Source: a virus
Lineage: Duplodnaviria; Caudoviricetes
Direction: 5' to 3' (one strand)
IMG/VR virus record: IMGVR_UViG_3300043434_000734
Coordinates: 149,707 to 213,706 of that record
Length of the DNA: 64,000 nucleotides
The notes below the pieces were generated by a model. That model did not search any database. It was not told the origin of the DNA and saw only the letters and a list, made by a program, of their open reading frames with translations. The stretch's first letter is position 1. Each line of letters opens with the position of its first letter. The position numbers and the translations under genes were made by a program. Positions 43,218 to 61,977 of this stretch are shown in pieces.

Positions 43218-43254
43218 TTTGTTTAGATTAGTTATGCAATATTAATAAGGATAT

Positions 43255-43450
43255 TCTAATTTTCCAAAAAATTTTCTGGAATTTTTTTTTCGATTTCCAC
43301 ATAAAAAGTCAATTTTTGGGATTTTTTCTGGAAAAATTTCTGTCGAGGCATTGACCCCCCTTTTAGACCCCCCCAAAATACCCTATATAAGGGGGGATAC
43401 GGGAGGGGGGTCCCCCCACAGGGGTACGGGGGGAGGTGGATACCCCTATA
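43255..43450. other. A-tract region followed by G/C homopolymer runs
   Basis: Repeated TTTTCTGGA and A/T tracts, C-runs 43344-43369, G-runs of 6,3,6,4,6 at 43391-43433. Confidence 0.8.
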
Positions 43451-43614
43451 CCTGCCACACAAATAATCCAATGGTCCACCTGATCACACATCTTGTTATT
43501 TAGACTGATAATAAATTAAAAAAAAGTATCATATAAATTTGTTATATAATAAAACATATGTTATATTTGTATACACAATCAGAACGGGGACAGGTCTACT
43601 GAACACCACACACT

Positions 43615-43878
43615 ATGAGTACTTTATTTGTAACAATGTCAAATTTGAGAAACGAGTTAATGAAGAAGTATGGTAACAATCGTATCTTCTTAAAAGAAAT
43701 TATGAACTCGGATGAGGTAATGGTCATTTGTTTTAATGTCGGAGGTAACTACGATTCAATTGTTGGGGAGGTTGTATTAACTGATGAGGGTTGGACACTT
43801 GGGGAGTTTAACCACGAAGTCTTTGAGATGTTATTAGACCACCAAAAATCGTTTACTGAAATTGGAGTTTTGAATTAG
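43615..43878 (+). CDS. hypothetical early protein
   Basis: Own promoter and terminator. Confidence 0.8.
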   Translation: MSTLFVTMSNLRNELMKKYGNNRIFLKEIMNSDEVMVICFNVGGNYDSIVGEVVLTDEGWTLGEFNHEVFEMLLDHQKSFTEIGVLN

Positions 43879-44245
43879 ATTTGTTGTTCATCCAAAGTCA
43901 TCCCTCACTGAGAAATCGGTGGGGGATTTTTGGTTTATGGGGTAAATAGTTGACGGTAGTCAGGAAGGGGTGAAATGTTGTGTGGCAGTCTCACCTGTAA
44001 CGTCCCCTGATCTTATTGTGTGGCAAGTGATGTAAAATGTGGATAACTTTATTTGGTATAATCAAAATAGTTGTATATCTTTGTGGTTTGGTTTGTGTGC
44101 CACACAAGTTATGGGTACGTCCTCCGTCCCACCCCAAAAGTTAAGGGTATGTTAAATAAAAAATAATTTAATTTTTTTTATATAATAATTTGGATGGTAA
44201 ATTAGAATTGACTACCTTTACATAACACAAAAAAACACACACATT

Positions 44246-44812
44246 ATGACAACCCAAGTAAAAACCCAAATCGTAGTTAATGACCAAGAAATGGAATTGG
44301 TATTTCGTGAAGTTGAAAACCAAGTTCCCGTTCCATTTATTTCAGTTACTTTAAAAACCGAGTTTAAGGGTATGTTAAAGAAATGTAAGGAAGATGGAGA
44401 AATCAATCCTTACTACAAATCTTTACAAAAGGTTTCGACCAAAACTTTTCTTTTAGTAACTGACTATGTAAAAAGAGTCAAGGGAAATCGTACGAAAGAA
44501 GGTAAAGACCCCGAATCTTTTGTAGTTGAATCCCCAAGTGGTAAAGTTCATATTTCTAAATGTCTTTTAACTGACACCGAAACACACACCAAACGTTATG
44601 TAATGTTAGAGTGGTTTCCCGAAACAAAAGGTTCTACTGAATATTTTCAAGGTAACGACCGAATCGGTAAAGAGTTATTCTCAAAGTGGATGACCAATTA
44701 TGACACCTCAAATGAGAAACAAGGTTTGGAGAGAGAGGTTAAACCAATTACCCCACTATTCGAAAGTATCGTTTCCTTTCGAGTGAATGGAATGGAATAC
44801 ATTAGAGGTTAG
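44246..44812 (+). CDS. hypothetical early protein
   Basis: 188 aa; own promoter and terminator. Confidence 0.85.
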   Translation: MTTQVKTQIVVNDQEMELVFREVENQVPVPFISVTLKTEFKGMLKKCKEDGEINPYYKSLQKVSTKTFLLVTDYVKRVKGNRTKEGKDPESFVVESPSGKVHISKCLLTDTETHTKRYVMLEWFPETKGSTEYFQGNDRIGKELFSKWMTNYDTSNEKQGLEREVKPITPLFESIVSFRVNGMEYIRG

Positions 44813-45082
44813 TTCCCCTACTAACCGAAAAGACCACCCCGAAAGGAGTGGTTTTTTTTTGTCCAAAAAAAATTCTGAGGTTCGGAAAAAATTGTGTGGC
44901 AATTGTCATACATTAACACCATTTTAACAATTTAAATTTGGTGGGACGAAGACAAGAAAAAATTATTGTGTGGCAAATGCCAAATAAAAATTCGGTCGAG
45001 AAAAACCTTAACAAAGTGTTAACAAATAAAATCGTTGGATAATGATTATTGTTGTATATTTGTCATACAAACAAACCACGTT

Positions 45083-45277
45083 ATGACATCAACATTTTTA
45101 CCCATTGAGGAAATCCCAATGAAGTGTTTTAGAATCAAATTTCCCAACAACACCTACGATGTGTTCATCCCCGATACTACTGACAAGAGTAGTTGTGTGA
45201 ACATTACCGATGAAAATGGTGACCAAATCCCATTCAAGGATTGGGATAACGTTCTACAATTTTTACCAAACATTTAA
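45083..45277 (+). CDS. hypothetical early protein
   Basis: ATG 45083 after promoter at 45055. Confidence 0.7.
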   Translation: MTSTFLPIEEIPMKCFRIKFPNNTYDVFIPDTTDKSSCVNITDENGDQIPFKDWDNVLQFLPNI

Positions 45278-45529
45278 CAAATTAACCCCTTACGAAAGTG
45301 AGGGGTTTTTTTATGTGTAACCTTACACGTCCCTGAGAAATTTGTGTGGCGCCGATGTGGATAACTTTATTTTGTATAATAAAAATAGTTGTATACCTTT
45401 GTGGTCGGTTTTAATTTTGCCATACAAAATCCTCCACGGGTTCAGGACGTCCTAAAAAAATTAATAAAATGTTTGGTCTATAATAAATTATCTTGTATAT
45501 TTGTATCAACAAACAAACACAAATACATT

Positions 45530-45871
45530 ATGGAAACATTAGTAACTACCATTGTTAGAGATGAAAAAATTGAAAGTCTAAGAAAAGAATTGAATCAATT
45601 AGCACTTGAAAAATTCATAGATGAATTGTCATTCGAGGATATTAGAATAACAAGTTGTATCCATACAATTACGGGTATCAATTATTTGAAAATGTATGTT
45701 CATCTTCCCGAGTATCGTTCAAACACAAAGGACAAAGTGATTAATAAAAAACAAACAGCACATTTAGGTAAGTCGTCCAAAGTTTTCCCTTTAATGGTTA
45801 ATGAGAATTTTCGTAACTATATGGTAATAAAAATGAAAGATACACTTACACGAAAATTTTTAAACAAATAG
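45530..45871 (+). CDS. hypothetical early protein
   Basis: ATG 45530 after promoter at 45496. Confidence 0.8.
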   Translation: METLVTTIVRDEKIESLRKELNQLALEKFIDELSFEDIRITSCIHTITGINYLKMYVHLPEYRSNTKDKVINKKQTAHLGKSSKVFPLMVNENFRNYMVIKMKDTLTRKFLNK

Positions 45872-45875
45872 AGAT

Positions 45876-46082
45876 ATGAAAAAGACAACATTTTGGTTTT
45901 CAACTATTACGTTAATGTTTATGGGTACGTTATTATTCTTTGTAGGTTTAGAGAACTACCAAGATGAAATGTTACCAAAAGGAGTTAGAGAAAGTTTTTT
46001 GGTTGTGAGTGGTTTTGGTTTATTGGTTAGTATGTTTGGTTGTGTGTGTGGGGTGTTTAGTGATAAACGCCATTTGATTTAG
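45876..46082 (+). CDS. 2-TM small membrane protein
   Basis: Two hydrophobic helices. Confidence 0.75.
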   Translation: MKKTTFWFSTITLMFMGTLLFFVGLENYQDEMLPKGVRESFLVVSGFGLLVSMFGCVCGVFSDKRHLI

Positions 46083-46373
46083 TTCGTTTTTTTTGTTGTT
46101 CACATTAGAATCCCTCGGAGTTTTACTTCGGGGGATTTTTGTTTACCACAGATTTTCCGTCCTGATCCGCATCTTATATTGTGTGGCAACCATCTCACCG
46201 TGATTGTGATCAGACGGGATTTATTTGTGTGGCATTTGCCAGATGAATTGATCACCCGGATCAAACGGTCCCCTTATTTAGAATGAAAATAAATTAAAAA
46301 AAAGTATATAATTTATTTGGTGTATAATAAATTATGTATTATATTTGTGTATACAAAAAAACACAAACACACG

Positions 46374-47186
46374 ATGAAAATTACAAACGACTCAATCTGT
46401 TCGATGATAGTTTCAAAGGACTTCAAAGACCACCAAAGTAAATTCACATTAAACGTTCTTGAAACTAAAGGTTTAAACGATAACCAAAGTAGAATGTTAG
46501 GTGAGAAATTGAATTTCTACGAACAATCAGGTTTCCGTATGTTAGTATTCTCTAAAAAGTCAAAAGAGAACTTGGAAAACTATCTTATCCCTAAAGATAT
46601 CCGTTTAGATGTGTTGAGAAATTTACCTAATAGAAAAGATGTTATTCAAATTGATGAGAACAATTGTATCAAATATATGAAGGATGATGATACATTATGT
46701 TTTGCTACCCATTATAGAAAGTCGTCTGACTTCGGTACTAAACCTACTTGGGATAATATGATTCACACACATTTCTTTTATGTGGATTTAAAGACTGGTC
46801 ATATGGGATTTGATGAGTCAAACACATACACTAAAGAAGATGTTAAAGATGTCAAGACATTCATTGAGAAATTCTATTCACGTTTCTTAGTTGTAGTTAC
46901 TTACTTGGAATTAACCGATGTGACTTTGGATATTGTTGAGGGTGTGTTAGGTAAGAATAAAAATAAGAAGTCTAATTTGACTATTAGTAATAGTTCACGT
47001 TTCAATGTCATACACGTTAATACGAATTGGAACACAATGGTTATCAACGTTAGTACGTTTGGAGTACGTGGACATTGGAGATTACAACAATGTGGTGTGG
47101 GTAGAAGTCATTACAAGTATGTGTGGGTTAAACCTTATGAGAAAGGTCTCACTCGTAGACTACCTCAAAAAGAATTAGTTGGTTAA
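46374..47186 (+). CDS. phage hypothetical protein with VRGHWR motif
   Basis: C-terminal VRGHWRLQQCGVGRSHYKYVWVKPYEKG. Confidence 0.8.
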   Translation: MKITNDSICSMIVSKDFKDHQSKFTLNVLETKGLNDNQSRMLGEKLNFYEQSGFRMLVFSKKSKENLENYLIPKDIRLDVLRNLPNRKDVIQIDENNCIKYMKDDDTLCFATHYRKSSDFGTKPTWDNMIHTHFFYVDLKTGHMGFDESNTYTKEDVKDVKTFIEKFYSRFLVVVTYLELTDVTLDIVEGVLGKNKNKKSNLTISNSSRFNVIHVNTNWNTMVINVSTFGVRGHWRLQQCGVGRSHYKYVWVKPYEKGLTRRLPQKELVG

Positions 47187-47447
47187 TTGATTGTGTGTGT
47201 GGAACCCCCGATGAGAGTCGGGGGTTTTTTTGTGTCTGAAGGGTTCCGTCTCCTGAGCCATATCATATTTTGTGTGGCAGGTTCACCGTCAGGGCCGGCT
47301 GTGATCATCTTGTGTGGCAATTGTCATACATAGTATCCTTGCCAATCAATGTTGTGATTGACTTCAGGGTAGACCAAAAAAATAAATTAAATAATATTTG
47401 GTGTATAATAAATTATGTATTATATTTGTGTATTAAATGATAATAAA

Positions 47448-48059
47448 ATGAGAAAGAAAAAAATCGATTTAAGTTTAGTCACAATCCATACGAGTTCACT
47501 TGTTAGTGTTGACCCAAGAAATGATTTAGACGGCACTAATATCTATAACACAGAATTCATTCAGTTTATTACTGGTGAAATAAAAATGTACAATTTGGAT
47601 TCAGATAATGATGACGTTATCATTTTGGGTAATTTTAAATTGATGTTATTGTGGGGTACGGAAGAAATGATTTATGAATCGTTAGATAGTCACAGCAGAA
47701 ATACTGTAACATATGGTGACGAATTGTTCGATGAGGATATGAATGTGAAGGATGAATATTATGATTTGATGTGTGAAATATATGAGAATCGATTTTTAAT
47801 TGTTGAGGAGATTAATATAAATGAAGAATACCGAGGTCAGGGAGTGGTAAAAAAACTAATCGACACTATTAATTTAACATATCGTTGTCCAATGGTTTTA
47901 ATACCTTTTCCACTACAATATCAACCAACTCACGATAATGAAGAAGAATTAAAACTACTTCCCCCAATTAATGGTCCGATGAGAAAGGTTGTTAATTCCT
48001 ATAAGAGATGTGGGTTTAAGAAACCTAAACCGAGTTCACTCCTAATGGTTAAATGGTAA
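47448..48059 (+). CDS. GNAT-like acetyltransferase
   Basis: ININEEYRGQGVVKKLI and SYKRCGF. Confidence 0.65.
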   Translation: MRKKKIDLSLVTIHTSSLVSVDPRNDLDGTNIYNTEFIQFITGEIKMYNLDSDNDDVIILGNFKLMLLWGTEEMIYESLDSHSRNTVTYGDELFDEDMNVKDEYYDLMCEIYENRFLIVEEININEEYRGQGVVKKLIDTINLTYRCPMVLIPFPLQYQPTHDNEEELKLLPPINGPMRKVVNSYKRCGFKKPKPSSLLMVKW

Positions 48060-48359
48060 TCATAGTCCCACTCCAATCGAGTGGGATTTTTGTTTACCAC
48101 AGATTTTCCGTCCTGATCCGCATCTTATATTGTGTGGCAAAGAAACCTCCACCGTGATCTGTGCCGATCAGGTGCAATATGTTGTTTGGCAATTGCCACT
48201 CAATGTTCGGTGCTGTCACCGTCGCCTAATTCGTGTGGATAATGTGTGGAAAAAAAATAAAAAAAAAGTTTAAATATTTTTGGATATAATAAAAAAGGTT
48301 GTATCTTTGACATATCAAACAACCAAAGCGGTGGACAGCGTTACTGAACAAAATTTACT

Positions 48360-49094
48360 ATGTCATATTCAGGCAAAAAAATTAATGAAATTTACTCTAC
48401 TAAGGAGTACGCGAAATTCAAGTTAATCAAAGGTAATCGCGTTATCAAAAATCCTAAGATTAAAAAACTTGTTAAGTCGATGACTGAAAACGGGTGGTTA
48501 CCTGGCTCTTATGTAATCGTTAATAGCAAATGGGAAATCATCGATGGCCAACATAGAATCTTGGCAGGTATGCAATGTAATCTACCTATTGTTTATACAA
48601 TGGAGAAGAAAGCTGATGAGAAAGTAATGCGTGGTTTGAATACCGCAGGAGATAATTGGCAATTGAACGACCACTTACACGGATTTGTGGAAGATGGAAA
48701 TGAGCACTACATTAAGTTAGATAACTTGATGAAGGCTTTTCCCGAGTTAAAAATTACGGAGGCGATGATGTTATGTAAAAACGCTTATGTTGGTATTCCT
48801 CGTGGAACATTCGAGAGTGGTGAATTCACAACTAAGAATATGACCATAGCACATCAGTGGGGTGAGTACATTATGCGATTGAAACCTTTCGCTAAATTCT
48901 TTAACACGGGTATCTTTGTTAGAGCGTTAGTATGTTGTCTTACAAAGGAAGGTTTTAACTTCGAGGACTTTATGAGAAAGATTGAACTTCGACCAACTTC
49001 GTTAGTTAAGTGTGGAACGAGAGAACAATACATCGAATTATTTGAGAGTATCTACAACTATCGTAGAAGCGATAAATTGAACTTACGATACTAA
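48360..49094 (+). CDS. ParB-N-like domain protein
   Basis: GNR...LVKSM...VIVN...IIDGQHRI. Confidence 0.8.
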   Translation: MSYSGKKINEIYSTKEYAKFKLIKGNRVIKNPKIKKLVKSMTENGWLPGSYVIVNSKWEIIDGQHRILAGMQCNLPIVYTMEKKADEKVMRGLNTAGDNWQLNDHLHGFVEDGNEHYIKLDNLMKAFPELKITEAMMLCKNAYVGIPRGTFESGEFTTKNMTIAHQWGEYIMRLKPFAKFFNTGIFVRALVCCLTKEGFNFEDFMRKIELRPTSLVKCGTREQYIELFESIYNYRRSDKLNLRY

Positions 49095-49337
49095 GAGTTT
49101 GGTTGTGGTTAGAAAATTGGGGTGTTCGAAAGGACATCCCTTTTTTTATGCGTATGACACAACGCAGCTTGAGTCGCCGGCGTCAGGGAATGTTGTTTGG
49201 CAATTATACGTATTACATATGTTGCCACAAGAATTTGTGGCCAGGTCCCTGACGTAAAACTTTTAACAAAACATTCACAATAAAACTTGTAATATAATCG
49301 TTTAGTATGTATATTTGTATCACTAAACCCACTAACA

Positions 49338-49550
49338 ATGATTAACCACTCTTTCACAAAAGAACAACTAATTGGTCGTCGTATCGTATTACATAAGATG
49401 AACGATGACCCAAAGACAAACCCAATTCAACCCAATACAATGGGAACGATAATATCCGTAGATGATATGGACTATTATCAAGTGAAGTGGGACAATGGTA
49501 GAACTTTAAATCTACTACCCGATGAAGATGAATTTGAATTTATTAACTAA
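49338..49550 (+). CDS. DUF4314-like protein
   Basis: GRRIVLHKMNDDP...GTIISVDD...VKWDNGRTLNL. Confidence 0.8.
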   Translation: MINHSFTKEQLIGRRIVLHKMNDDPKTNPIQPNTMGTIISVDDMDYYQVKWDNGRTLNLLPDEDEFEFIN

Positions 49551-49561
49551 CACACAATACA

Positions 49562-49705
49562 ATGAAAGAAATGTTTACCACTCTTAGAGATGTCTACAAG
49601 GAAGACCCTAAGGATTTTATCATCACATTATTATTTGGAATCTTTATCTTTACGATGACTTGGTTCCTATTATGGTTTCACGGAACATTTATGTACGATA
49701 TGTGA
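49562..49705 (+). CDS. 47-aa single-TM protein not in the ORF track
   Basis: MKEMFTTLRDVYKEDPKDFIITLLFGIFIFTMTWFLLWF... Confidence 0.65.
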   Translation: MKEMFTTLRDVYKEDPKDFIITLLFGIFIFTMTWFLLWFHGTFMYDM

Positions 49706-49915
49706 ATGTTTCCCGTTTAAACTTTCTAACCCTCGACTTGTTCGGGGGTTTTTTGTTTCTGTGAACCTCATCAAAAATCTGAGTCTGTAAAAAATTGTGT
49801 GGCAACTGCCAATCAAAAAGTTATCAGAACCTTCTGATAAAAAAATAATTAATGAATTGTTTGGTATATAATATATTTTGTTGTATATTTGAGTACACAT
49901 TTAAACACAAATATT

Positions 49916-50116
49916 ATGGAAGGAATTCAATTTGACCGAAACCGACACGGAGGACTCTATGACAGAGGTAGTGCTGACAAATACTATGGTAGATGTAAAT
50001 CACCACATTGGTACCCCAAGGGTACGGGTCGTGGTAAACCTATTACTGACCTTACCGAAGAGGAAATCAAGGAGTACAATTTAGGTTACGATGAAGAAAC
50101 CGAAACCAAATTTTAA
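49916..50116 (+). CDS. hypothetical early protein
   Basis: HGGLYDRGSADKYYGR; own promoter and terminator. Confidence 0.8.
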   Translation: MEGIQFDRNRHGGLYDRGSADKYYGRCKSPHWYPKGTGRGKPITDLTEEEIKEYNLGYDEETETKF

Positions 50117-50362
50117 TGAAAGGGGAACGAAAGTTCCCTTTTTTTATTTCACCTGAAGTTACTGTGCGACGGGGGAAAGTTGTTTGGCAAGTTCACCTTC
50201 ACTGATCAGCACTGATCTATTTGTTTGGCAATTGCCACAAGATATTGTACAGTGGATCACAGGTGAATTTTCTTTCACAAAATTTTAACAAAAAAAGATT
50301 AAATAAATTTGGATGTATAAATAAAATAGTTGTATATTTGTGTACACAAAACAAACAACGTT

Positions 50363-51133
50363 ATGACTATTAAACTAAACACAAACTTATTCCCTATCAT
50401 TTCAGTGGCTATGTATGGAACTTACTTAGACCCTGATTCTATGTTTGATTCGTATATGATTGAATCCGATAAAGAGGAAGGTTATATACATTTTGATTTA
50501 GATTATTTTTGGAGTAATTTTCAATACGATAAATATCGATTGGCAATTCAGGATAGAGCACATTCATTCATCAACGGAAAACATTCCGAAAATAATGTGT
50601 GGGTATTAATTAAGGCTGGTGAAATCTATTCCCCTAAGTATTATAACTTTAGTAACGATGAAATTGATTTGGATGTAACCTTTAGTAAGTCCAAAGTTTT
50701 GAATGAGGTTAATAAAAACATTACTAAGTTTAATGAGTTCCTTAAAGAACGTTATAGTAGTTGTGATGGATTCAATTCATTCACCGCTAATAACTACATT
50801 GAGTGGTTGGAAGATTATAATGAGGATAAGGACACCGCAGTTGGTGCTGTTCTAACTTACTTATTCCAAGAAACGATTGAGGAAAATCGTGAGGGTTTTA
50901 TTCAACACGTTTGTGATGACTATATGGATTATCGTGAGTTCGTGGACTTCGAGGAACACGATGAGGAGGTGGTTGTATTACGTAACTACGTGTATGAAAA
51001 TTATAACACTATTGATGTGGATTCAATTGATGAGGAAACATTTAAATTTAAAGTATTTGGATTAGAGGATATAAAAAAATTATTAAAGGAGTTCGTATTA
51101 CAGATAGATAATAAGACCCTTTCACTTTTTTAG
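50363..51133 (+). CDS. hypothetical early protein
   Basis: YSPKYYNFSND motif; own promoter and terminator. Confidence 0.85.
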   Translation: MTIKLNTNLFPIISVAMYGTYLDPDSMFDSYMIESDKEEGYIHFDLDYFWSNFQYDKYRLAIQDRAHSFINGKHSENNVWVLIKAGEIYSPKYYNFSNDEIDLDVTFSKSKVLNEVNKNITKFNEFLKERYSSCDGFNSFTANNYIEWLEDYNEDKDTAVGAVLTYLFQETIEENREGFIQHVCDDYMDYREFVDFEEHDEEVVVLRNYVYENYNTIDVDSIDEETFKFKVFGLEDIKKLLKEFVLQIDNKTLSLF

Positions 51134-51336
51134 TTTGTTTGTATGTGTGTGTGAAACCCCTGATGAGAGTCGGGGGTTTTTTTGTTGTCATACAACTCCA
51201 CTTGAGTCTGAAGACAAAATATATTGTGTGGCAAGTATTACATCTTAACAAAAATTTAACAAAAAAAATAATTAATATATTTTGTTTCTAATAAAAATGT
51301 ATTATCTTTATATCACTAAACAAACACATCTACACA

Positions 51337-51537
51337 ATGGAACAAACAAACATTATCCGCAAAAAGGTTACCTTCGGTAACGACAACGAAATTAAAGGTT
51401 GGATTAAAACAACTGATGGTACAAAAACTAACTTCCTTATTAATGAGGGTGAAATCAAACAATGGGGAAATGCAACATCAACTGACACTAATCCATTCTT
51501 ATTAGGTTTACTTGAAATGTTGTATAGTCAAGAATAG
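51337..51537 (+). CDS. hypothetical early protein
   Basis: Own promoter and terminator. Confidence 0.75.
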   Translation: MEQTNIIRKKVTFGNDNEIKGWIKTTDGTKTNFLINEGEIKQWGNATSTDTNPFLLGLLEMLYSQE

Positions 51538-51779
51538 GTTGAATAAATTTTAGAACTCGAATTGGGAAACCCTACGACTTTTAGTTGTGGGGTTTTTTGT
51601 TGCTGTGCACTGTACCCGCACAGATCAGGGATAGATGTTGTTTGGCAATTGCCACACAATATGGATCCTGTAGATCACGCCGGCAAATTCTTTAACAAAA
51701 AATTATGAAAAATAAATTAAATAATTTTTTTTATAATAAAAATAGTTGTATATTTGTATGAACAAAAACAAACAAACAA

Positions 51780-53151: not shown

Positions 53152-53417
53152 TACATTATAGGGTTAATCGTTAAATAGAAATCCTCTCGGTTCTGCTGAG
53201 GGGATTTTTTGTGCGCACGTATTACAGCGCAAACTAAATAGCAACCGTGCGCTGCAACAGCTGATCATATTGTCTGGCAAGTTAAACGTATTAGATCTGC
53301 CACACAACATCCCGAATGGAGATCACAGGTGAATCATCTTAACAAAAAATTAACTAAATAATTTGTTTGGTAATAAAAATACTTGTATATTTGTGTACAC
53401 AACAAAACAAATACATT

Positions 53418-53756
53418 ATGACTAACAAAAGAATTACCGAAGTTTGTTTCCCTCTTTTAGAAAGAGAGTTCGACTTAAAAGAAACGATGAAAGTATTAAG
53501 TTACAATCCCACAATATTTTGGAGTTGGGGAGTAAGTACAAGATTAAACATCAACGACAAAGGTCTACTATTAGAAGTTAATGGACATCATCACAAGGGT
53601 AGTGTGTTAATCACATTAGGTTGGAACGACACTTATTGTGTGTACATCATCAACAATAGAGGTAGAATCTTAAATGAATATAAAGAAGTTTATTTCGACG
53701 TGTTAACTGAATTGATTGACAATCGAATTGAAAGAATTAAAGAATATAGTTTGTAG
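53418..53756 (+). CDS. hypothetical early protein
   Basis: WSWG...VNGHHHKGSVLITLGWNDTY. Confidence 0.8.
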   Translation: MTNKRITEVCFPLLEREFDLKETMKVLSYNPTIFWSWGVSTRLNINDKGLLLEVNGHHHKGSVLITLGWNDTYCVYIINNRGRILNEYKEVYFDVLTELIDNRIERIKEYSL

Positions 53757-54011
53757 TTTTTTTTGTTTTAAATACACTTTGAAATCCCTCGGTCTTTTAG
53801 GTCGGGGGATTTTTGTTTCCACCTGAAGTTACAGTTGGGTCTGGTGGAATTTGTTTGGCAAGTGCCACACAATAATTTACAGACTCAGAACCCAAAAAAA
53901 AATTGTCACAGATAAAAAAAATAAATTAAATAATTTATTGTATAATCAGAATTAATAACTATCTTTGATAACACAATCAAAACGGGGACAGGTTTCTGAA
54001 CAACAAAGAAT

Positions 54012-54302
54012 ATGTTAGAATTCGAATTTCAAATGGACGACATTAGTAATGACATTTATGTTGAGGGTGAGTTTACCGACAACATCACGGAAGAACACGT
54101 GTTAAACATTCTTCACTTTGTTAGAAACCAAGAGTGGTTTAGTGAGGGGAATAAAACGGAAGGTATCATCACCTTAACCGAAGAGAGTACCGAAGTAATG
54201 TGGAATAAAGTCTTTATGGTCATCACAGATGATGGGGATGTCTTGGATGAAGTTGATGGACCGATAACCCACGTAATTAATAAACAATTTTACAAATTGT
54301 AA
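54012..54302 (+). CDS. acidic hypothetical early protein
   Basis: Own promoter and terminator. Confidence 0.8.
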   Translation: MLEFEFQMDDISNDIYVEGEFTDNITEEHVLNILHFVRNQEWFSEGNKTEGIITLTEESTEVMWNKVFMVITDDGDVLDEVDGPITHVINKQFYKL

Positions 54303-54505
54303 AATGAACCCCCACCGAAAGGTGGGGGTTTTTTATTGTCCACAGATTTCCCGTCCTGATCAGCTCGGAATGTTGTTTGGCAATTGCCACACAATATCCA
54401 TTGATCAACCGGTCGACGAAAAATTCCTTTAACAAAAAATTAACTAAATAAATTTGTGAATAATAAAAATTGTTGTATATTTGTATTGTACTAAACAAAC
54501 AACCA

Positions 54506-54703
54506 ATGACAAATTACCAAGTATTATCCCCTGATGGTTTTACGATTGAATTCGATAGACCATACTACACTTCAAGAGAAAAAGCTTTAGAAGCATTTCA
54601 CGATTGGAAAGAACGTTATAGAAAACAAGGTTACTATTCCTCGAACAACGGAAGAATCCCTTTGGATGAATTAGAAAATCATTGTACAATTCAATTAGTA
54701 TAA
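54506..54703 (+). CDS. hypothetical early protein
   Basis: ATG 54506 after promoter at 54476. Confidence 0.75.
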   Translation: MTNYQVLSPDGFTIEFDRPYYTSREKALEAFHDWKERYRKQGYYSSNNGRIPLDELENHCTIQLV

Positions 54704-54705
54704 CT

Positions 54706-54924
54706 ATGATAAAGTCAGTAGAAGAAATGGACACCAAGATTGAAATTAATCTACTTGGACCGGACGGAAATGTATTCAACCTTATATCGGTGGGTGGGAG
54801 ATTGTGTAAACAACTCGGTAAGAATTCGGAGATGTTTACTCGCCGTATGATGAGTGGAGACTACGAAAATGCTGTTAACACATTCGAAGAATACTTCGGA
54901 GATTTTGTAACCCTTTATAGATAA
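54706..54924 (+). CDS. phage hypothetical protein
   Basis: INLLGPDGNVF...MMSGDYE...FG. Confidence 0.8.
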   Translation: MIKSVEEMDTKIEINLLGPDGNVFNLISVGGRLCKQLGKNSEMFTRRMMSGDYENAVNTFEEYFGDFVTLYR

Positions 54925-54925
54925 T

Positions 54926-55123
54926 ATGGATAATTTTTTAAAACCTTATATGTTGGGGGAAACTCCACAAGTAACCGAAACTAAAATTAATAATCTGTCT
55001 ATGATAGATGTTAAGTGGCATTATGATTTTATCGGAGGTAAATCCGAAAGATTAAAAGTAATTAACCATTTGAAAAAGGTTGGTTATGTGTATCAAAATA
55101 GTTTTTACATTAAAATTTTGTAA
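54926..55123 (+). CDS. hypothetical protein
   Basis: Closely spaced ORF in operon. Confidence 0.65.
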   Translation: MDNFLKPYMLGETPQVTETKINNLSMIDVKWHYDFIGGKSERLKVINHLKKVGYVYQNSFYIKIL

Positions 55124-55141
55124 CCCTTTATAGATAATGAA

Positions 55142-55333
55142 ATGATAATCCCAATTAATTCAGTGGCAAGTGTATTAGACACCGACACCAAAATCGTTTA
55201 TGCTAAATTTCAAAAAGGTGGGTATGACATCACGAGTGGTGTACACATAGACAACCTTTCTAAAAAGTTCGTGGATGATATTAGTGAAGAAGATATAATT
55301 TTAATTAATCAATTTGTTGGTATAATAAAATAA
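55142..55333 (+). CDS. hypothetical protein
   Basis: 63-aa ORF in operon. Confidence 0.65.
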   Translation: MIIPINSVASVLDTDTKIVYAKFQKGGYDITSGVHIDNLSKKFVDDISEEDIILINQFVGIIK

Positions 55334-55369
55334 ATTGTATATCTTTACATCACACAAAAAAAACAAGTT

Positions 55370-55573
55370 ATGGAAAAGTACAAAGTAGTTAGTGGTGGTT
55401 CCCCAAACGAACTATCAAACAAGGTAAACGAATTACTCGAAACGGGTGAATGGTTTATCAATGGTGGACATCAGGTTGTAATACTTCGACAACAAAATCG
55501 TTATCGTGGAGACCAACATATTGATACCTTAAACGAACTTGAATATACTCAAACCCTTATAAAGAAAAACTAA
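55370..55573 (+). CDS. DUF1737-like small protein
   Basis: YKVVSG...LSNKVNELL..GEW.I.GG. Confidence 0.55.
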   Translation: MEKYKVVSGGSPNELSNKVNELLETGEWFINGGHQVVILRQQNRYRGDQHIDTLNELEYTQTLIKKN

Positions 55574-55574
55574 T

Positions 55575-55841
55575 ATGGAAACATTTGATTTTTATTTAGA
55601 CCAAAAACATACCATTTGGTATCGTAATACATTCACTATCGAAGCTGAGACTTTGGAAGAGGCTAAGGCTAAGGTTATTGAAATTTGTAATAACCCTACG
55701 GAAGATTTACCGAGTGATGAATGGGAAACCTTATTCGACACGGTGGAAGGATTAACAGTGGGAGATAACGGAGGTCAGGCGACTGAGGAAGTCTATACAC
55801 ATTCGGGAGAAATGATTTGGGATAACATTAAAACTAATTAA
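55575..55841 (+). CDS. acidic hypothetical protein
   Basis: FTIEAETLEEAKAK motif. Confidence 0.75.
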   Translation: METFDFYLDQKHTIWYRNTFTIEAETLEEAKAKVIEICNNPTEDLPSDEWETLFDTVEGLTVGDNGGQATEEVYTHSGEMIWDNIKTN

Positions 55842-55842
55842 G

Positions 55843-56190
55843 ATGTCAGAGTTCACAAGAAAATACATAGAATTAAAAATAGAAAGTTTAGAGTATATTA
55901 GAGAATTCTTTAAGAAGAATAATATAACTCGTTATGAATTCGTATCACTTGAAGAAATTGAGTCGGACGACTTCTCGGATAATCACTGGCAATATCCACA
56001 AGCAACAGTTGTTGGTAGACACGACCATACATACTATTATACTATTACAAGTATTACATTAGAAGATGGTAACCTATGGTTCAATGGTGTAAGTGTTGGA
56101 GAAGATAGTGATGACTACAACTTCGGAGAGCTTGAGGTAGATGTGGCTTGTTTATGTGATTCAGCAGATTTATTAACTTTAAATAACTAA
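55843..56190 (+). CDS. acidic hypothetical protein
   Basis: 115-aa ORF in operon. Confidence 0.75.
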   Translation: MSEFTRKYIELKIESLEYIREFFKKNNITRYEFVSLEEIESDDFSDNHWQYPQATVVGRHDHTYYYTITSITLEDGNLWFNGVSVGEDSDDYNFGELEVDVACLCDSADLLTLNN

Positions 56191-56194
56191 TAAA

Positions 56195-56515
56195 ATGAAC
56201 AGAGAAATAGTAGATACGAAAAACATTCTTGACCTATCGAACATAGATTCGTGGGACTTAATTAAGGAATTAAAATCTCGTGGGTATTACACTCAATTGA
56301 ATTATAGTCCGAGTGATGTTGATATGATGTTAGAAAGTATTAATAGTGATAGAGATGAGAAAGAAGGGAACATCATTATGTTATGTCAAGAAGATAAGGA
56401 AGCAATTCTCGAAGATTGTTTTAACACCGACTGGTATTGTGAGAGAATGAATGATGATTTGGTGGAACATATCTTGGACAACTACGATGACGAAACGTAT
56501 TACAATAAAAGTTAA
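56195..56515 (+). CDS. acidic hypothetical protein
   Basis: 106-aa ORF in operon. Confidence 0.75.
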   Translation: MNREIVDTKNILDLSNIDSWDLIKELKSRGYYTQLNYSPSDVDMMLESINSDRDEKEGNIIMLCQEDKEAILEDCFNTDWYCERMNDDLVEHILDNYDDETYYNKS

Positions 56516-56591
56516 ACATATTAAAAAAAAGTTTGGCTGTTAAAAAAAAGTGTATTACATTTGCACTATCAATTAATAAAATCCGTATATA

Positions 56592-56771
56592 ATGACAACG
56601 AAAATTATTTTATCAAACGACAAGAAATGCTACGATTTGTGGTATAGTGTTGATGGTCTTAATTACAAGTTACATAAGAGTGGTTTTAAAAGTATAGACT
56701 CGGCAATAAAAGAATCAACAATAATATCTGGCACACAAAAATTATTAAGAGACATCTTATTAAGAAAATAA
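56592..56771 (+). CDS. 59-aa protein not in the ORF track
   Basis: [22 protein letters not shown]...; promoter at 56556, terminator near 56804. Confidence 0.65.
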
Positions 56772-57076
56772 AGGTTAGGTTAGTAAGTTTAGTAGTTAGT
56801 AGTCCCTCATCAGAAATGGTGGGGGATTTTTTTATGTCTGAAGTCTCACCTGCGGATCTTCCAGGAAGATATTGTGCGGCAAATATTTCACACTAGTTTA
56901 CCCAGTAATCTGTACTGGTCCTTCCAGGAAAAGTTGTGTGGCAGTTGCCAAACAATATTCCCCTGTGGCCCGTGATCAGATCAGTAACTTCACAAAACTT
57001 TAACAAAAAAAGATTAAAATAAATTTGGTGTATACAAGTATATGACTTATCTTTGTGTACACAAGAACAAAATACT

Positions 57077-57697
57077 ATGGCTAACTATTGTCAAAACACG
57101 ATTACTATTAAGGGAGACAAACTCACCCTTAAGAATATCATCAACATACTCGATAAAGAATCTGAAGAAGGATTATTCGAGAGATTGATTGGTACCAAAG
57201 CTGGAGTTAGTAAACAAGAGTACGAATCTAACTCATATAACTTCAACCTTGAGTATTGGGGATGTAGAAGTGATGTGGATATTGATGGTGAATTCAGATA
57301 CGAGGTGATGAGTGATACTGAGTTGGTCCTATATCCTGACACACCATATTCTCCACCAATCCCATTCTGTCAAACTCTATGTATAAACTATGGTGTAGAT
57401 ATCCATATGTTTTATTATGGGATGGAGGACAACTTCTGTGGTGTGACCACTCTTACTAAAGAAGGTTTCATTAATGAGGAGGATTATCTTTATCTTGATG
57501 GTTTATACATATTCAACGAAATGGATTTATTTTGGTCTGAAGTTGAGTCACGTATGGAAAGTCATATTGAATATTGTGAGAACTATGACGTGGAAGAATT
57601 CATAGAGAACAATGTTGAAGGGGTACCAACCGAAGTCAAAGACGAAATCAGAGAGATGTTTTCACAAATATTACAAGATTATCAAATTATAAATTAA
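57077..57697 (+). CDS. YubB / DUF1281-like ferredoxin-fold protein
   Basis: MANYCQNTITI, NLEYWG, DTPYSPP, NFCG. Confidence 0.75.
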   Translation: MANYCQNTITIKGDKLTLKNIINILDKESEEGLFERLIGTKAGVSKQEYESNSYNFNLEYWGCRSDVDIDGEFRYEVMSDTELVLYPDTPYSPPIPFCQTLCINYGVDIHMFYYGMEDNFCGVTTLTKEGFINEEDYLYLDGLYIFNEMDLFWSEVESRMESHIEYCENYDVEEFIENNVEGVPTEVKDEIREMFSQILQDYQIIN

Positions 57698-57702
57698 ATC
57701 AT

Positions 57703-57957
57703 ATGTTAATGGCAAGTAAAATTAAACCTGAAAAGTATTCTATCGAAGAATTCAACGAGTGGACCAAGTATATTGGTTTCGGAACAAGATTCGATTATAC
57801 CAACTTTGAGAACCGAGAGTTGGTAAGAAGAATCGAGGAAGCTAAATTTGCTCAGGACAATCCAGTGGTAAAGGTTCCGAGTGATAAACTTGAGAGTCTG
57901 AAGACGGACCAGGGAAATATATTCTCTGGCATCAAATCAATTTTAAATTTCTTTTAA
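57703..57957 (+). CDS. hypothetical protein
   Basis: 84-aa ORF. Confidence 0.7.
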   Translation: MLMASKIKPEKYSIEEFNEWTKYIGFGTRFDYTNFENRELVRRIEEAKFAQDNPVVKVPSDKLESLKTDQGNIFSGIKSILNFF

Positions 57958-57971
57958 AACAAATAAATAAA

Positions 57972-58487
57972 ATGGGTAGAGTAAACAAAAGCACCGAGGG
58001 TGTGTTCGTCAACATTGTAGGGTCGAACTCGGAGATTAGTAAGTACAAACAGTTCCTTCACAGATCAGCGTCGACGATGTCGTCTGGCAAGTTCAGTTCT
58101 AAGTACGACGGTCTGTCAACAGCATATAACAATAAGTGTACTGTCATTAAGATGGACCTTGAACAATTGGCACAGTTGGAAGTAATAATGATGCAAATCC
58201 GTTCAGTGGATGAGATTGAAGGTAACATCGTATGGTTCCAAATGAGAAACAAGTACGTGTATGCAAGATGTCCTTTCTATAGAACAGACCAATCCATTAA
58301 TGAGATGAGATGTCTTATCGATAATCTTGAGTTTTATTTCACAGACGTTCAGGATACAGATCTGTCAATATTGTCTGGCAATCCTGAATTCGTGGAGAAG
58401 ACCAAGGAGAAACTTATTGCCAAGATGGAAGATGAAATTGGTGAGAACGTTCGTAACTACGAGAAAGTATACGGAAAAATATCCTAA
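57972..58487 (+). CDS. hypothetical protein
   Basis: 171-aa ORF. Confidence 0.75.
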   Translation: MGRVNKSTEGVFVNIVGSNSEISKYKQFLHRSASTMSSGKFSSKYDGLSTAYNNKCTVIKMDLEQLAQLEVIMMQIRSVDEIEGNIVWFQMRNKYVYARCPFYRTDQSINEMRCLIDNLEFYFTDVQDTDLSILSGNPEFVEKTKEKLIAKMEDEIGENVRNYEKVYGKIS

Positions 58488-58528
58488 AAAAAATTTGTAT
58501 ATTCTAACTTAATCATTATCTTTACTGT

Positions 58529-58861
58529 ATGACAAACCAACAACTACTACAACGTCGTGACAACCTCCACCGTGAGATTGTGGTGTCTACTATGAAGTTA
58601 AATCAGCTCAACGATGAGTTTGATTTAATCTTGAAGGAACCGTTCGAATTCGAACACGCGTATTACAGACCATATAGTAGTGAGGGTGGTCGAGAACTAC
58701 TGAAGGTTACGGGTGTTGACGGAACCACGGGTGAACTCCTGTGTGAGAATGAGGACCGTCAATTAAGATTCGTCTACTATCACGAGCTAACACTCGAAGA
58801 ACTGACTCGTCTACACCGTAGTGTATTACAGGGAGAATATGTATTACAAATCCTAATATAA
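58529..58861 (+). CDS. hypothetical protein
   Basis: Promoter at 58517. Confidence 0.75.
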   Translation: MTNQQLLQRRDNLHREIVVSTMKLNQLNDEFDLILKEPFEFEHAYYRPYSSEGGRELLKVTGVDGTTGELLCENEDRQLRFVYYHELTLEELTRLHRSVLQGEYVLQILI

Positions 58862-58868
58862 CAACCAA

Positions 58869-59504
58869 ATGAAAACAATCACACTTTCTAATGAAGTAAT
58901 GGTATCGGACCCTTGTTACACTGTCGGTACCTGGTGTCAACACAAGTTGACCAATGTATTACCTGGTGAGTATCAAACCAAGGTAATGAAGTTTCAGGAC
59001 CCTATGTGGGGTAACCGATGTTCATTCATCATTGCTGTCCACAAGGATTATAACACAGATGAGAAGCTCAATTGGAGAAAGGTGGTGGCGGATATTGGTG
59101 TGGACTCAGGTCAGGCTGGTTTCTTCAGTATGGATAGTTACCGAAAGGATGAGGTGTTCGTAACAGGTATATCTGAACATTCCAAGAGATATGGTCAATA
59201 CTCCAAGAAAGAACAAGAAGGTGAGGAATGGTATGGTCACATATGTGATTTAACTGATAACTCCGAACGTTGGGGTACCTATTCAAATGGTATTGTTTCT
59301 TCTTCAGGTATCGGGGACGGATCATACGAACTTCGTGTGGCAAAACACAAGGGTAAGATTGTGGGTATACTACTTGACTTCTTTATGGAGAAGTTGACAG
59401 GACCTGTGATTGAGTCTATGAGAACCTCTGAGATGTTGGGGGACGTATGTGGAATCTGTGGGGAAGATAATGTAGATGGTGTATCTTGTAACTGTAAAAA
59501 CTAA
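58869..59504 (+). CDS. DUF4241-like protein
   Basis: VSDPCY, GVDSGQAGFF, SSGIGDGSY. Confidence 0.7.
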   Translation: MKTITLSNEVMVSDPCYTVGTWCQHKLTNVLPGEYQTKVMKFQDPMWGNRCSFIIAVHKDYNTDEKLNWRKVVADIGVDSGQAGFFSMDSYRKDEVFVTGISEHSKRYGQYSKKEQEGEEWYGHICDLTDNSERWGTYSNGIVSSSGIGDGSYELRVAKHKGKIVGILLDFFMEKLTGPVIESMRTSEMLGDVCGICGEDNVDGVSCNCKN

Positions 59505-59509
59505 CTATA

Positions 59510-59644
59510 ATGAAAAAAATTCTAACGGACCTTGAGTGGTTCATCGACTTCTACCTGATGATCCTGTTGTATAATCCAAACAAGGTACATCGGTACGATG
59601 CTTGGATGACCAAGAAGTGGGGGACAAGATACACAGGAAAATAA
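59510..59644 (+). CDS. 44-aa protein not in the ORF track
   Basis: MKKILTDLEWFIDFYLMILLYNPNK... Confidence 0.55.
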   Translation: MKKILTDLEWFIDFYLMILLYNPNKVHRYDAWMTKKWGTRYTGK

Positions 59645-59768
59645 CTACGATCCACAGAGGATCAGCTCTTTGATATCGTCTGGCAACGACACGTAAAAAA
59701 TATTGGGTATAATTTTTTATTACGAATATTGTTTGTTATATTTTAAATGTAACTTAAATAAATTCATT

Positions 59769-59948
59769 ATGAAAAAAACTACCAACACAGGAACAAGATC
59801 AACTTATACTCCTGTATCCAACAATGTTTACCACGATGGTTATTCTTATCGTGTACGTGTATCAATCAATGGTGAGAAGATCAGCAAGAACTTTTCTAAC
59901 AAGAGAAAGGCAATTGTATATCGTAACTCTTTATTGAAGTCAGCATAG
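59769..59948 (+). CDS. small AP2/Arm-like DNA-binding protein
   Basis: YRVRVSINGEKISKNF...KAIVYRN. Confidence 0.55.
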   Translation: MKKTTNTGTRSTYTPVSNNVYHDGYSYRVRVSINGEKISKNFSNKRKAIVYRNSLLKSA

Positions 59949-60119
59949 GACAATATTCTATTTGGACACTTGAGACCCTCACAGTGTGAGGGTTTTTTGT
60001 TTCCCACCTGAAGTACTCAGATGATCTGATCAGGATCAGGACTCCAATATTGTCTGGCAAGATATCACCACCCGACGGGATCACACTGTAACATATTGTG
60101 TAGCATAATATTTATTACT

Positions 60120-61019
60120 ATGAAGATATTGAAAGTACTTAAGGAACAGGAAGAGACTAACCCAAACCTACAGACCATCGACGGTGGAACCTTTGGGTTT
60201 ATGAAGGAGTCATTGGATAAGATTCAAAAGGAGTTAGATGAGACCAAATCGAGGATTTCCTACGAGCTGTTCGACTCACCTGACGGAACCTACAGATGTC
60301 ACACTCAATTCAATGTTACGAGATCATCTGAGACGGAGCTGAAGTTGTCTGGCAAGATATACCTAATCTTAAAAGAACCAACCATTCCGTTGGACTTCCT
60401 ATCAGTATCAGCCAAGTGGTTGTTAAATAAAATAAATGAATTATGTCCTGACGTATTTAATACGGTAAAGGATGGTAGATATCAAGAAGGATCTATTACC
60501 TTTAACTTCCACGACGTCTTCATATCATATAACGATTCCTTCTTAGGTCTATACGATTATATGGAACGTGCGTATTACAATACTAACGTGGTTAACCTAA
60601 TCCCAATAGAAGAGTTAATGAATGACAGATCCATTGATTTCAACTATCAACTCGAACCATCTCAGGTCCCAACCTTCAGTGACGATTATTCTCTGGCAAT
60701 AGAAAGAATAATAAAGAAAGTCAAATCAGTATATAAGGGATTCCGTAAGGGAACATTCAAGGGACACGAATATGAGTATAAAGAAAACCCTCCAAGAATA
60801 TCTATCCATCCTAGAGACGATGACTACAACCCACAAACCAAAGTAATACATCCGAAGTTCAGAGTTCAGATTAATGGTGGTTATGTATGGTTAGACGGTA
60901 AACCCACCAGTGAGTTTGGTGCTTTACCCGAAAATAGATTCACGGACACCCTCGTCATTAAACAGTTCGACGAATATATTAAAGCCCGTTTCGAACAGTT
61001 CGGTATTAAGATTCTATAA
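60120..61019 (+). CDS. hypothetical protein
   Basis: ATG 60120; N-terminal VLKEQEE. Confidence 0.75.
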   Translation: MKILKVLKEQEETNPNLQTIDGGTFGFMKESLDKIQKELDETKSRISYELFDSPDGTYRCHTQFNVTRSSETELKLSGKIYLILKEPTIPLDFLSVSAKWLLNKINELCPDVFNTVKDGRYQEGSITFNFHDVFISYNDSFLGLYDYMERAYYNTNVVNLIPIEELMNDRSIDFNYQLEPSQVPTFSDDYSLAIERIIKKVKSVYKGFRKGTFKGHEYEYKENPPRISIHPRDDDYNPQTKVIHPKFRVQINGGYVWLDGKPTSEFGALPENRFTDTLVIKQFDEYIKARFEQFGIKIL

Positions 61020-61960
61020 TAGATGTTGTAACAACTAAATATTGTCTGGCAAGTGTATTACGGGGGACCTTCGGTCCCCCTTCATCCCGTACTAATTGTA
61101 CTATACTAAGAACCCTTCGGAAAATCCCTAAGGGTTTTTTTAATTTCCGTTGTACTATTCTAAGATGTATGACACCTGAAGGTCCTCCCGACAGGGAGGA
61201 CCGTAAGAATGTATTACGTTCATATGTGGATAACTTGTGAACCTATAACGTACTTTATGTTAAATAGATATGACAGGATGACAATCGGGTTTCTTGCCAG
61301 ACGACTTGTATGACGTTTGTTTAAGGTTTTTAGTAAAAGGTTAAACAGACCCTTGCCAGACAATATTGTATTACACGGGAAACTTTAACGGGTGTAATTA
61401 GTTTCCTGCGGGGGACCTTACTCCCTCCCTTCGGTCGGTCGGTCTCCGACAGGTCCCCCTTCAGGTTCCACGTGGAACAAATGTACCGAAGGTCAGGAGG
61501 AACGACTGTATGACATATAGTATATCGTATAATAGTGGGTCGAGTATACTGAAGGGACGACCGAAGTGAAACGCAGGGAGTCCCGTATAAGGGTATTATA
61601 TGTATACATTTTTCAAATTTTCCAGATAGTGGGTCTTAATTCACGCAAGGGTCAATCCCCCGGTACTTCCAACGTATATAAGAAAATATATAAATGTTCC
61701 GATATTATATATCCAGTGGGAAAAAGTGGGTAAAAATTACCCATTATATAGTGGATTATTGATCACGATAAAAGTTACCGAAAAAATACACGTTTTTAAG
61801 GGTAAAAACAGGAAAAAATACGGTGTTTTTTTAGGGGGAATTTAATGGGGATATTGTACCTTGTAGATAGGTTTTATTCGGGGGTAAGTAGTCGGTGTCG
61901 AAGACCCGATGGAACAAAGTGTAGTCGGTCGGGAGACGATGTCTCCCTCCCTTCAGGGAA
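61020..61960. other. long non-coding region rich in hairpins and repeats
   Basis: GGGGGAC-CTTCG-GTCCCCC, GGTCCTCCC-GACA-GGGAGGACC, GGGAGAC-GAT-GTCTCCC, DnaA box at 61225, box copies, A-tracts. Confidence 0.8.
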
Positions 61961-61977
61961 TGTGCAGGATAATATAC

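Follow-up and report, generated by a model that had tools for sequence, protein, structure and literature searches.

We analyzed a 64,000-nucleotide stretch of a Caudoviricetes virus (IMG/VR record IMGVR_UViG_3300043434_000734, positions 149,707 to 213,706), hereafter called the window and numbered from its first letter. The window was found to contain an array of approximately 34 small genes (44-305 aa), all on the plus strand, which open reading frame (ORF) calls and a unit map divide into approximately 20 promoter-to-terminator units between 43218 and 61400. The units are separated by composite spacers carrying an oriented DNA box, and this box keeps its distance from the terminator of the upstream unit. 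We give about an even chance to the reading that the array is an early accessory block of the host-takeover or anti-defence type, which would be transcribed by host RNA polymerase and in which the box would dock one phage factor. The oriented ~15-mer anatomy of the box, the terminator spacing rule, and the positioned GATC sites are new in this analysis.

The spacers share a constant order, consisting of an intrinsic terminator, a GC-rich stretch with boxes, an A/T tract with TTAACA, a promoter, and an A/C-rich leader; the leaders of the array have no Shine-Dalgarno sequence. A first-pass annotation of the window had described about 37 small plus-strand genes in about 20 units with a fixed inter-unit order. 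The unit-by-unit map bore out the units and their order, and all of the elements that had been listed were present at their place and above chance. The small plus-strand genes were likewise recovered, but their number came down to approximately 34 when genes of at least 44 aa were counted. The one to three boxes described for each spacer were found nearly everywhere, the exceptions being the spacer at 52128-52233 and the operon-internal promoters, which have no box.

We first consider the box itself, which was compared across relatives recruited through the DUF932 protein and the ParB-like protein of the array and through the box. The window contains 33 copies of the box TTGTNTGGCA, where 0.43 would be expected, and every copy lies between 43453 and 61363. 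It was noted that the relative G001, an IMG/VR record of 335.6 kb rated complete, holds 34 of its 36 boxes within one 18-kb stretch (22.3-40.3 kb). The boxes are therefore confined to the array; a spread through the genome would have counted against the earlier annotation. The two boxes of G001 outside its array were considered as an autoregulated candidate and rejected as chance hits. When 132 boxes from eight arrays were pooled, the element appeared as an oriented ~15-mer, aATaTTGTtTGGCAA, with an inverted partner at +12 in 36 copies (27%), and the pooled orientations were 132 plus against 53 minus. The box of the first-pass annotation was thus present, but its form had to be corrected to this oriented element, which mostly stands without an inverted partner. 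Readings of the box as a sigma-54 or other two-element promoter were ruled out because of an unsuitable GG-to-GC spacing and the lack of conserved sequence 3' of lone boxes.

Four lineage-specific box types were found within the same architecture. The other three read TTCYGTGGCA/TGCCACRGAA in L016, ATGATTGGCTC/GAGCCAATCAT in L021, and TCAAWCGGCA/TGCCGWTTGA in L022; a GGC core is common to the types, and the inverted halves stand at differing distances. A comparison of the window with L015, the relative closest to it, showed a conserved terminator, box, and promoter, whereas the GC-rich filler had diverged and the number of box copies had changed. Restriction to the array, lineage-specific types, and a box conserved amid diverging filler form the pattern expected of binding sites selected for a phage-specific reader. 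Across 185,579 genomes of bacteria and archaea (596 Gb), the 22-bp palindrome formed by paired boxes was no more frequent than chance, one mis-binned relative excepted, and the factor that would read the box is therefore probably phage-encoded. It was also noted that the word GTATTAC recurs between or beside the half-sites in all four box types, with many further copies inside genes. Over the whole window this word has 20 plus-strand copies (18 in the array) against 6 on the minus strand, and the longer form CGTATTAC has 7 copies, all in the array (43200-61500).

The placement of the box follows a tight rule at the terminator. Across ten arrays and all four box types, 89 of 91 first boxes past the terminator had the L orientation, and the first box mostly lay 34-49 nt from the T-run. 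In the window this distance is 35-47 nt, and nearly every terminator is followed by a box at approximately 39 nt. The promoter-proximal box of the window starts 103-120 nt before the -7 element, and in compact spacers one palindrome satisfies both rules; however, across the ten arrays the box-to-promoter distance is loose (50-136 nt or more). The box is therefore registered to the upstream terminator and not to the promoter. The filler between the T-run and the box is conserved in length and not in sequence. GATC sites are most frequent in two zones, 11-30 nt ahead of the first box and 20-40 nt past it, and their observed-to-expected ratio is 1.9 near boxes compared to 0.2 elsewhere. GATC, GCGC, and CCGG are avoided in coding DNA (0.14-0.33) and reach ratios of 1.3-1.9 within 60 nt of boxes. 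The array and its spacers are as follows.

43218..61400, plus strand: whole array, approximately 34 small genes in approximately 20 units (ORF calls, unit map).
43218..43614, plus strand: array head at a divergent junction, with a G/C-run region (43330-43450), a lone reversed box (43453-43462), the -7 element of the first promoter (43562-43569), and a leader hairpin motif (43583-43604).
43879..44245, plus strand: spacer with terminator 43900-43931, L boxes 43978 and 44016, orphan promoter 44052-44083, reversed box 44098-44107, and second promoter with -7 at 44213.
44813..45082, plus strand: spacer with terminator 44834-44860, L boxes 44892 and 44966, TTAACA-N5-TTAACA at 44913 and 45008, and -7 at 45055.
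45278..45529, plus strand: spacer with terminator 45284-45312, degenerate L box 45342, orphan promoter 45371-45401, reversed box 45418-45427, and -7 at 45496.
46083..46373, plus strand: spacer with terminator ending at 46140, L boxes 46179 and 46225, four GATC, and -7 at 46340.
47187..47447, plus strand: spacer with terminator 47201-47231, L boxes 47270 and 47310, and -7 at 47421.
48060..48359, plus strand: spacer with terminator 48064-48091, L box 48130, near-palindrome 48182-48203, three GATC, -7 at 48302, and a leader hairpin motif.
49095..49337, plus strand: spacer with terminator 49119-49147, L box 49193 with a distant degenerate partner, and -7 at 49310.
49706..49915, plus strand: spacer with terminator 49728-49754, L box 49795 with a degenerate partner, and -7 at 49884.
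50117..50362, plus strand: spacer with terminator 50118-50145, L boxes 50180 and 50221, three GATC, a bracketing dyad TTCACCTG...CAGGTGAA, and -7 at 50333.
51134..51336, plus strand: spacer with terminator 51153-51183, L box 51224, TTAACA-N5-TTAACA at 51245, and -7 TATCTTTA at 51303.
51538..51779, plus strand: compact spacer with terminator ending at 51598, 22-bp palindrome 51638-51659, three GATC, and -7 at 51749.
52128..52233, plus strand: minimal spacer without a box, with terminator 52134-52161 and the promoter directly after it (-7 at 52204).
53152..53417, plus strand: spacer with terminator ending at 53210, L box 53270 and R box 53298 (18-nt gap), three GATC, and -7 at 53386.
53757..54011, plus strand: compact spacer with terminator ending at 53814, palindrome 53851-53872, -7 at 53960, and a leader hairpin motif at 53981.
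54303..54505, plus strand: compact spacer with terminator 54306-54334, palindrome 54373-54394, two GATC, and -7 at 54476.
56772..57076, plus strand: spacer with terminator 56801-56833, degenerate L box 56872, palindrome 56934-56955, three GATC, and -7 at 57048.
59645..60119, plus strand: last two spacers, around the gene 59769-59948, with degenerate box 59676, terminator 59972-59998, L box 60050, and six GATC.
61020..61400, plus strand: gene-free array tail, kept in L015, with an L box (61042-61051) directly past the last gene, a reversed box (61354-61363), hairpins, and the word TGTGGATAA at 61225.

The full promoter pattern of the array is TTTG-N-TATAAT-N11-TAnnTTTG, with TTTG at -33 and TAnnTTTG at -7. 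Bacteroidota promoters carry a -33 TTTG element. The pattern TTTG-N18-22-TAnnTTTG had 15 plus-strand matches in the window, 13 of them inside the array, and TATAAT-N11-TAnnTTTG had 16 (3.2 expected), with 12 inside. TAnnTTTG is cited as the Bacteroides promoter consensus (Bayley et al. 2000, as given in PMC3090145). Judged by these motifs, the array promoters appear to be of a near-consensus Bacteroidota type with an A-tract and TTAACA upstream. The pair TTAACA-N5-TTAACA, which had been described as frequent, was enriched when up to one mismatch was allowed (12 against 2.3 expected, 9 of the 12 in array spacers), but the exact double form has just 3 occurrences. A reading of TTAACA and TATAAT as a sigma-70 promoter was ruled out, as the two lie 24-26 nt apart in the spacers at 53339 and 54429. 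Terminator-like sites numbered 31 against 9.7 in shuffled sequence, and the strong ones fall on the plus strand at unit ends.

Several further features of the promoters and leaders were noted. The motif TATTTATA has 21 copies in the window and only one in the array, a distribution that fits a separate promoter class for the non-array genes, perhaps that of a phage sigma factor. G001 encodes its own sigma-70-family factor, which would serve such other genes. Two near-identical orphan promoters (44038-44107 and 45356-45427) have no ORF behind them; each has a DnaA-box-like TGTGGATAA before it, a reversed box after it, and the regular promoter of the next gene downstream, and they could be tandem promoters or yield small RNAs. 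The TGTGGATAA words were rejected as DnaA boxes, being only weakly significant (5 against 1.3 expected, reached in 2 of 100 shuffles, with 4 in the array). Some leaders carry a motif approximately 30 nt before the ATG that consists of ACGGGGAC, a 3-bp stem, a loop of 4-6 nt, the stem partner, and AACAG. It was found at 43583-43604, 48318-48345, and 53981-54001 of the window and in at least 8 leaders of L016. Because its stem covaries (CAG..CTG and CGG..CCG), this motif could form a small RNA hairpin, which might serve as a translational operator or RNase target. No known RNA family was detected in the array. Inside its array (3332-3619), L016 encodes a stand-alone homolog of the C-terminal domain of RNA polymerase alpha (PF03118, E 2.8e-16); this is of note because the promoters carry UP-like A/T tracts, and no such homolog was found in the window.

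The gene content of the array fits an accessory early block. The array encodes weak matches to DUF1281_C and DUF4241 and ORFans in addition to the following genes.

44246..44812, plus strand: family-5 gene (188 aa), the first or second gene in every array.
47448..48059, plus strand: weak GNAT-like gene (203 aa), missing from the close relative L015.
48360..49094, plus strand: ParB-like gene (244 aa; PHROG 12305, E 3e-33), with an AlphaFold2 model at pLDDT 90.6 and best fold matches to ParB, Noc, and KorB.
49338..49550, plus strand: DUF4314 gene (70 aa; PF14192, E 5e-16).
52234..53151, plus strand: DUF932 gene (305 aa; PF06067, E 2.7e-23), with 1988 homologs found.

The family-5 protein gave a low-confidence model (pLDDT 67) with no fold match and no usable match in the Atlas. 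The arrays of L018 (15183-16142) and L025 (11384-12295) contain a C5-cytosine DNA methyltransferase gene (PF00145) that the window array lacks. With regard to source, the window had no DNA match among GenBank phages, and IMG/VR searches with single window proteins returned no close protein relatives. The recruited relatives include contigs of 316-351 kb in addition to G001, and their genomes measure roughly 0.33 Mb. The sequencing runs that contain the stretch are freshwater and lake metagenomes, with no RNA run among those listed, and a 13-kb relative was binned within a lake Bacteroidota metagenome-assembled genome, where it appears as a mis-binned phage contig. The source is therefore an uncultivated freshwater jumbo phage, very probably with a Bacteroidota host.

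In the favored reading of an early block, host RNA polymerase with the host primary sigma factor would start at the approximately 20 near-consensus Bacteroidota promoters, and each unit would stop at its own intrinsic terminator. The spacer would act as a composite element in which positioned GATC sites flank an oriented, array- and lineage-specific box aATaTTGTtTGGCAA, often with an inverted partner. The box would be the putative docking site of one sequence-specific, phage-encoded factor acting on all early units together, and the most likely effect would be insulation together with a timed shut-off of early transcription, which might respond to GATC methylation. Homology for PeSL-like gene shuffling (see below) would also come, as a by-product, from the repetition of the promoter, spacer, and terminator modules. 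The array layout is observed, as are the array restriction of the boxes, the spacing rule, the turnover of box types with lineage, and the shuffling of genes; from the sequence we infer the early timing, the protein binding, and the direction of the regulatory effect. In this qualified form the host-takeover-type block of separately promoted and terminated units proposed by the first-pass annotation is supported. Its further proposal of a single coordinating DNA-binding protein is still the best reading, but the ParB-like protein does not track box type.

Several points weigh against this reading. The early timing and the promoter use are predicted from sequence. The box lies at least approximately 100 nt upstream of the promoter and is locked to the terminator, unlike classical repressor or activator sites, and so strong an orientation bias among lone boxes would not usually be seen in a dimeric operator. 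No helix-turn-helix domain was found by Pfam among the array proteins, and no box binder was found; the ParB-like protein is the sole DNA-binding candidate of the array, and its similarity does not follow the box. Genes of G001 described below suggest two candidate ideas, one being a methylation-state switch at the positioned GATC and the other a role of the oriented box like that of ops. In a broader form, the terminator-locked oriented box with its flanking GATC would be a new class of cis-element acting on the transcription complex at the unit end and not on the promoter, for example by letting a NusG paralog or other factor catch or license read-through polymerase, or by using methylation, which would differ between injected and replicated genomes, as a clock. 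We consider such a class rather unlikely.

The clade does encode a NusG paralog. In G001 (222.9-224.4 kb; L047 419-1920), a Dam-family N6-adenine methyltransferase gene adjoins that of a divergent NusG paralog in one operon. The paralog is full-length (NGN and KOW domains), and its nearest families are NusG, LoaP, and UpxY, all below the equivalog cut-offs. It is shared by 18 related contigs of IMG/VR, among them a second genome of ~334 kb with a box array, and by this distribution it belongs to the conserved core genes of the clade. The box could then be an ops-like element on the non-template strand, read by this paralog on polymerase that has run through the terminator; the effect would be to pause and catch that polymerase as a terminator back-up or insulator, or later to convert it to processive read-through. 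The orientation of the box agrees with this, as it follows transcription just past the terminator, where only read-through polymerase would meet it. However, the palindromic pairs (27%) and the lone reversed box before the first promoter are unexpected for a strand-read element. Known ops-type sites, such as those of RfaH, UpxY, and LoaP, sit in leaders downstream of promoters, whereas the box, although on the non-template strand, lies between a terminator and the next promoter and not in the transcribed leader. The paralog also has no link to the array, and it was not found in the window, a search that covered 64 kb of this phage's genome. A NusG-read box thus appears unlikely.

The boxes could also be loading sites, like parS or the KorB operator OB, for the ParB-like protein of the array, which would spread or slide from them to silence nearby early promoters. 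KorB silences promoters of plasmid RK2 from distant operators, which lie 4 bp to more than 1 kb upstream (PMC11790492), and the palindromic boxes likewise stand upstream of many promoters, at distances that vary and are often long. Every related array that was examined carries the ParB-like gene. In its confident model the predicted fold is that of the ParB family, comprising an N-domain and a helical domain for DNA binding, and the top Foldseek matches are the CTP-dependent ParB, Noc, and KorB over 220-250 columns that span both domains; however, the TM-scores are just 0.3-0.45. The nucleotide pocket carries an invariant DGQHR motif instead of GERRxRA, and no KorA-like partner site was seen at the promoters. 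The window protein is 57% identical (62% in the C-domain) to that of L021, which has another box, compared to 43-49% for phages with the same box, and more distant homologs occur in L023 and L024, which have no array. Because its similarity does not follow box type, the ParB-like protein appears to be a weak candidate for the box reader, and we regard KorB-like silencing as improbable here.

We then assessed whether the spacers serve recombination, as the first-pass annotation had proposed a dedicated recombination module. Gene order is strongly permuted among relatives, in line with the exchange it had anticipated, and among close relatives the differences consist of indels of whole units, one swap, and genes exchanged behind promoters that are conserved. 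Assemblies break at spacers, but their joints have sides of less than 30 nt in repeat sequence and did not count as evidence. Of the junctions compared with L015, adjacency was kept in 7 of 9 that have a spacer and in 12 of 14 tight ones; with L018 the counts were 2 of 5 and 1 of 4, respectively. The 44 ends of homology blocks against four close relatives fell in promoters or leaders (13), tight junctions (11), coding sequence (8), boxes (5), other spacer sequence (4), and terminators (3); the pair of L018 and the G001 array was left out as too distant, as were redundant pairs (L018 and L019 are the same, and L017 matches a part of L016 exactly). Tight junctions were the most enriched, with 25% of ends in 3.9% of the sequence, compared to 25 of 44 ends in the 28% made up of spacers. 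Alignments of the junctions placed crossovers after the second box, inside the promoter, or at the box centre, and block ends that map to a box are liable to be alignment artefacts, given the terminator-box register common to all spacers. The complete relative G001 yielded neither a tyrosine nor a serine recombinase (PF00589, PF00239), and there is no recombinase among the genes flanking the array in the window. A dedicated module is not supported by these results, as adjacency was lost equally at both kinds of junction, block ends favor tight junctions, crossovers vary, and G001 has no recombinase. For the same reasons, the shuffling looks like general gene-boundary mosaicism together with homologous exchange between repeated modules, as described for the promoter/stem-loop cassettes (PeSLs) of T4-type phages.

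A narrower version, in which box pairs are attC-like cassette ends moved by a site-specific recombinase, was weighed against the same data. The permuted gene order is compatible with it, as are the block ends at boxes and a cassette indel (53873-54369) between two palindromes of which a relative retains one copy. Inverted boxes also stand at the 3' end of units, with a lone reversed half-site at the head and a lone L box at the tail, and the spacers show a mild excess of dyad symmetry (12 of 13 z-scores negative, mean -1.26). The array further resembles an integron in having co-oriented small ORFan cassettes between imperfect, lineage-specific palindromes. However, no integrase was found in G001 or beside the window array, and each unit has its own promoter and terminator, whereas integron cassettes are promoterless and share one Pc promoter. 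The arm spacing varies from 2 to 40 nt, and the breakpoints are not focused on boxes, being most enriched at junctions without a spacer and, within spacers, mostly in the promoter or leader. Together with the varying crossover points and the artefact-prone ends, this makes recombination sites very improbable. The binding of the box by a host factor, such as a Bacteroidota transcription factor or nucleoid protein exploited at time zero, would suit the otherwise host-type promoters and the need for a pre-existing or injected factor in the very first transcription, but it is hardly credible given that the box differs between related phages and that its palindrome is at chance level in bacterial and archaeal genomes.

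The early-block reading was compared with described phage systems. PeSLs combine a terminator with a strong host-type early promoter and an A/T-rich tract in plastic, ORFan-rich regions, where relatives differ by insertions, deletions, and replacements at the repeated motifs (PMC2839356, PMC4122927). The array shares the host-type early promoters with an A/T-rich upstream tract, and its relatives also differ by indels and replacements, the ends of which fall both in the repeated motifs and at tight junctions. However, the stem-loop of PeSLs overlaps or abuts the promoter, whereas in the array 150-250 bp separate the terminator from the -7 element downstream, and this interval holds the GC-rich spacer with its positioned GATC and its oriented, lineage-specific box. 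The promoter is of the Bacteroidota type (-33/-7) and not sigma-70, and only the spacer at 52128-52233 is PeSL-like. The SPBRE element of phage SPbeta was predicted in silico long before ChAP-seq identified the master repressor MrpR as its binder (PMC10516654). As in SPbeta, one ~15-bp element found only in the phage is repeated in many intergenic regions before units of small genes. However, SPbeta is temperate and MrpR maintains lysogeny, while here the site is oriented and terminator-locked, and the clade looks lytic rather than temperate, as G001 has no integrase. SPO1's host-takeover module comprises approximately 26 small early genes over ~12 kb in several operons with strong host-type promoters (PMC6873191). 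The array is likewise a block of small genes in several host-type-promoter units, with a takeover role that is predicted; SPO1 is not described as having a common spacer box, and its host belongs to another phylum. The array is distinguished from SPO1, PeSLs, and SPBRE by its Bacteroidota promoter, long GC-rich spacer, oriented box, terminator lock, and positioned GATC.

The array offers a clean, conserved, and testable cis code, which comprises a host-type promoter, a terminator, a lineage-specific box at a set distance past that terminator, and positioned GATC, in a clade that also encodes a Dam-family methyltransferase and the NusG paralog. To our knowledge, the coordination and silencing of dozens of early genes in large lytic phages are known for only a few model phages, none of them infecting Bacteroidota. 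The binder of the box, if found, would be a master early regulator of a widespread freshwater phage clade, and the block would be a natural catalogue of exchangeable anti-host genes.

A few observations concern the borders and the base composition of the window. The divergent junction at the head of the array, a region kept in L015 and L016, carries an alternation of G-runs and C-runs (window 43330-43450, L015 3520-3696, L016 100-230, L021 2990-3100) that is common to relatives of differing box types and may be an origin, terminus, or entry-related element. At the other end, a gene-free and hairpin-rich tail (61020-62185) has ~75% identity in L015, with boxes at both ends, one TGTGGATAA, and several GTATTAC. 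It was also noted that CATG is absent from the 64-kb window, where approximately 190 copies are expected by base composition, and that no start codon is consequently preceded by C. GCGC occurs 8 times in the whole window, and the scarcity of these two words suggests strong avoidance of NlaIII- and HhaI-type restriction sites.

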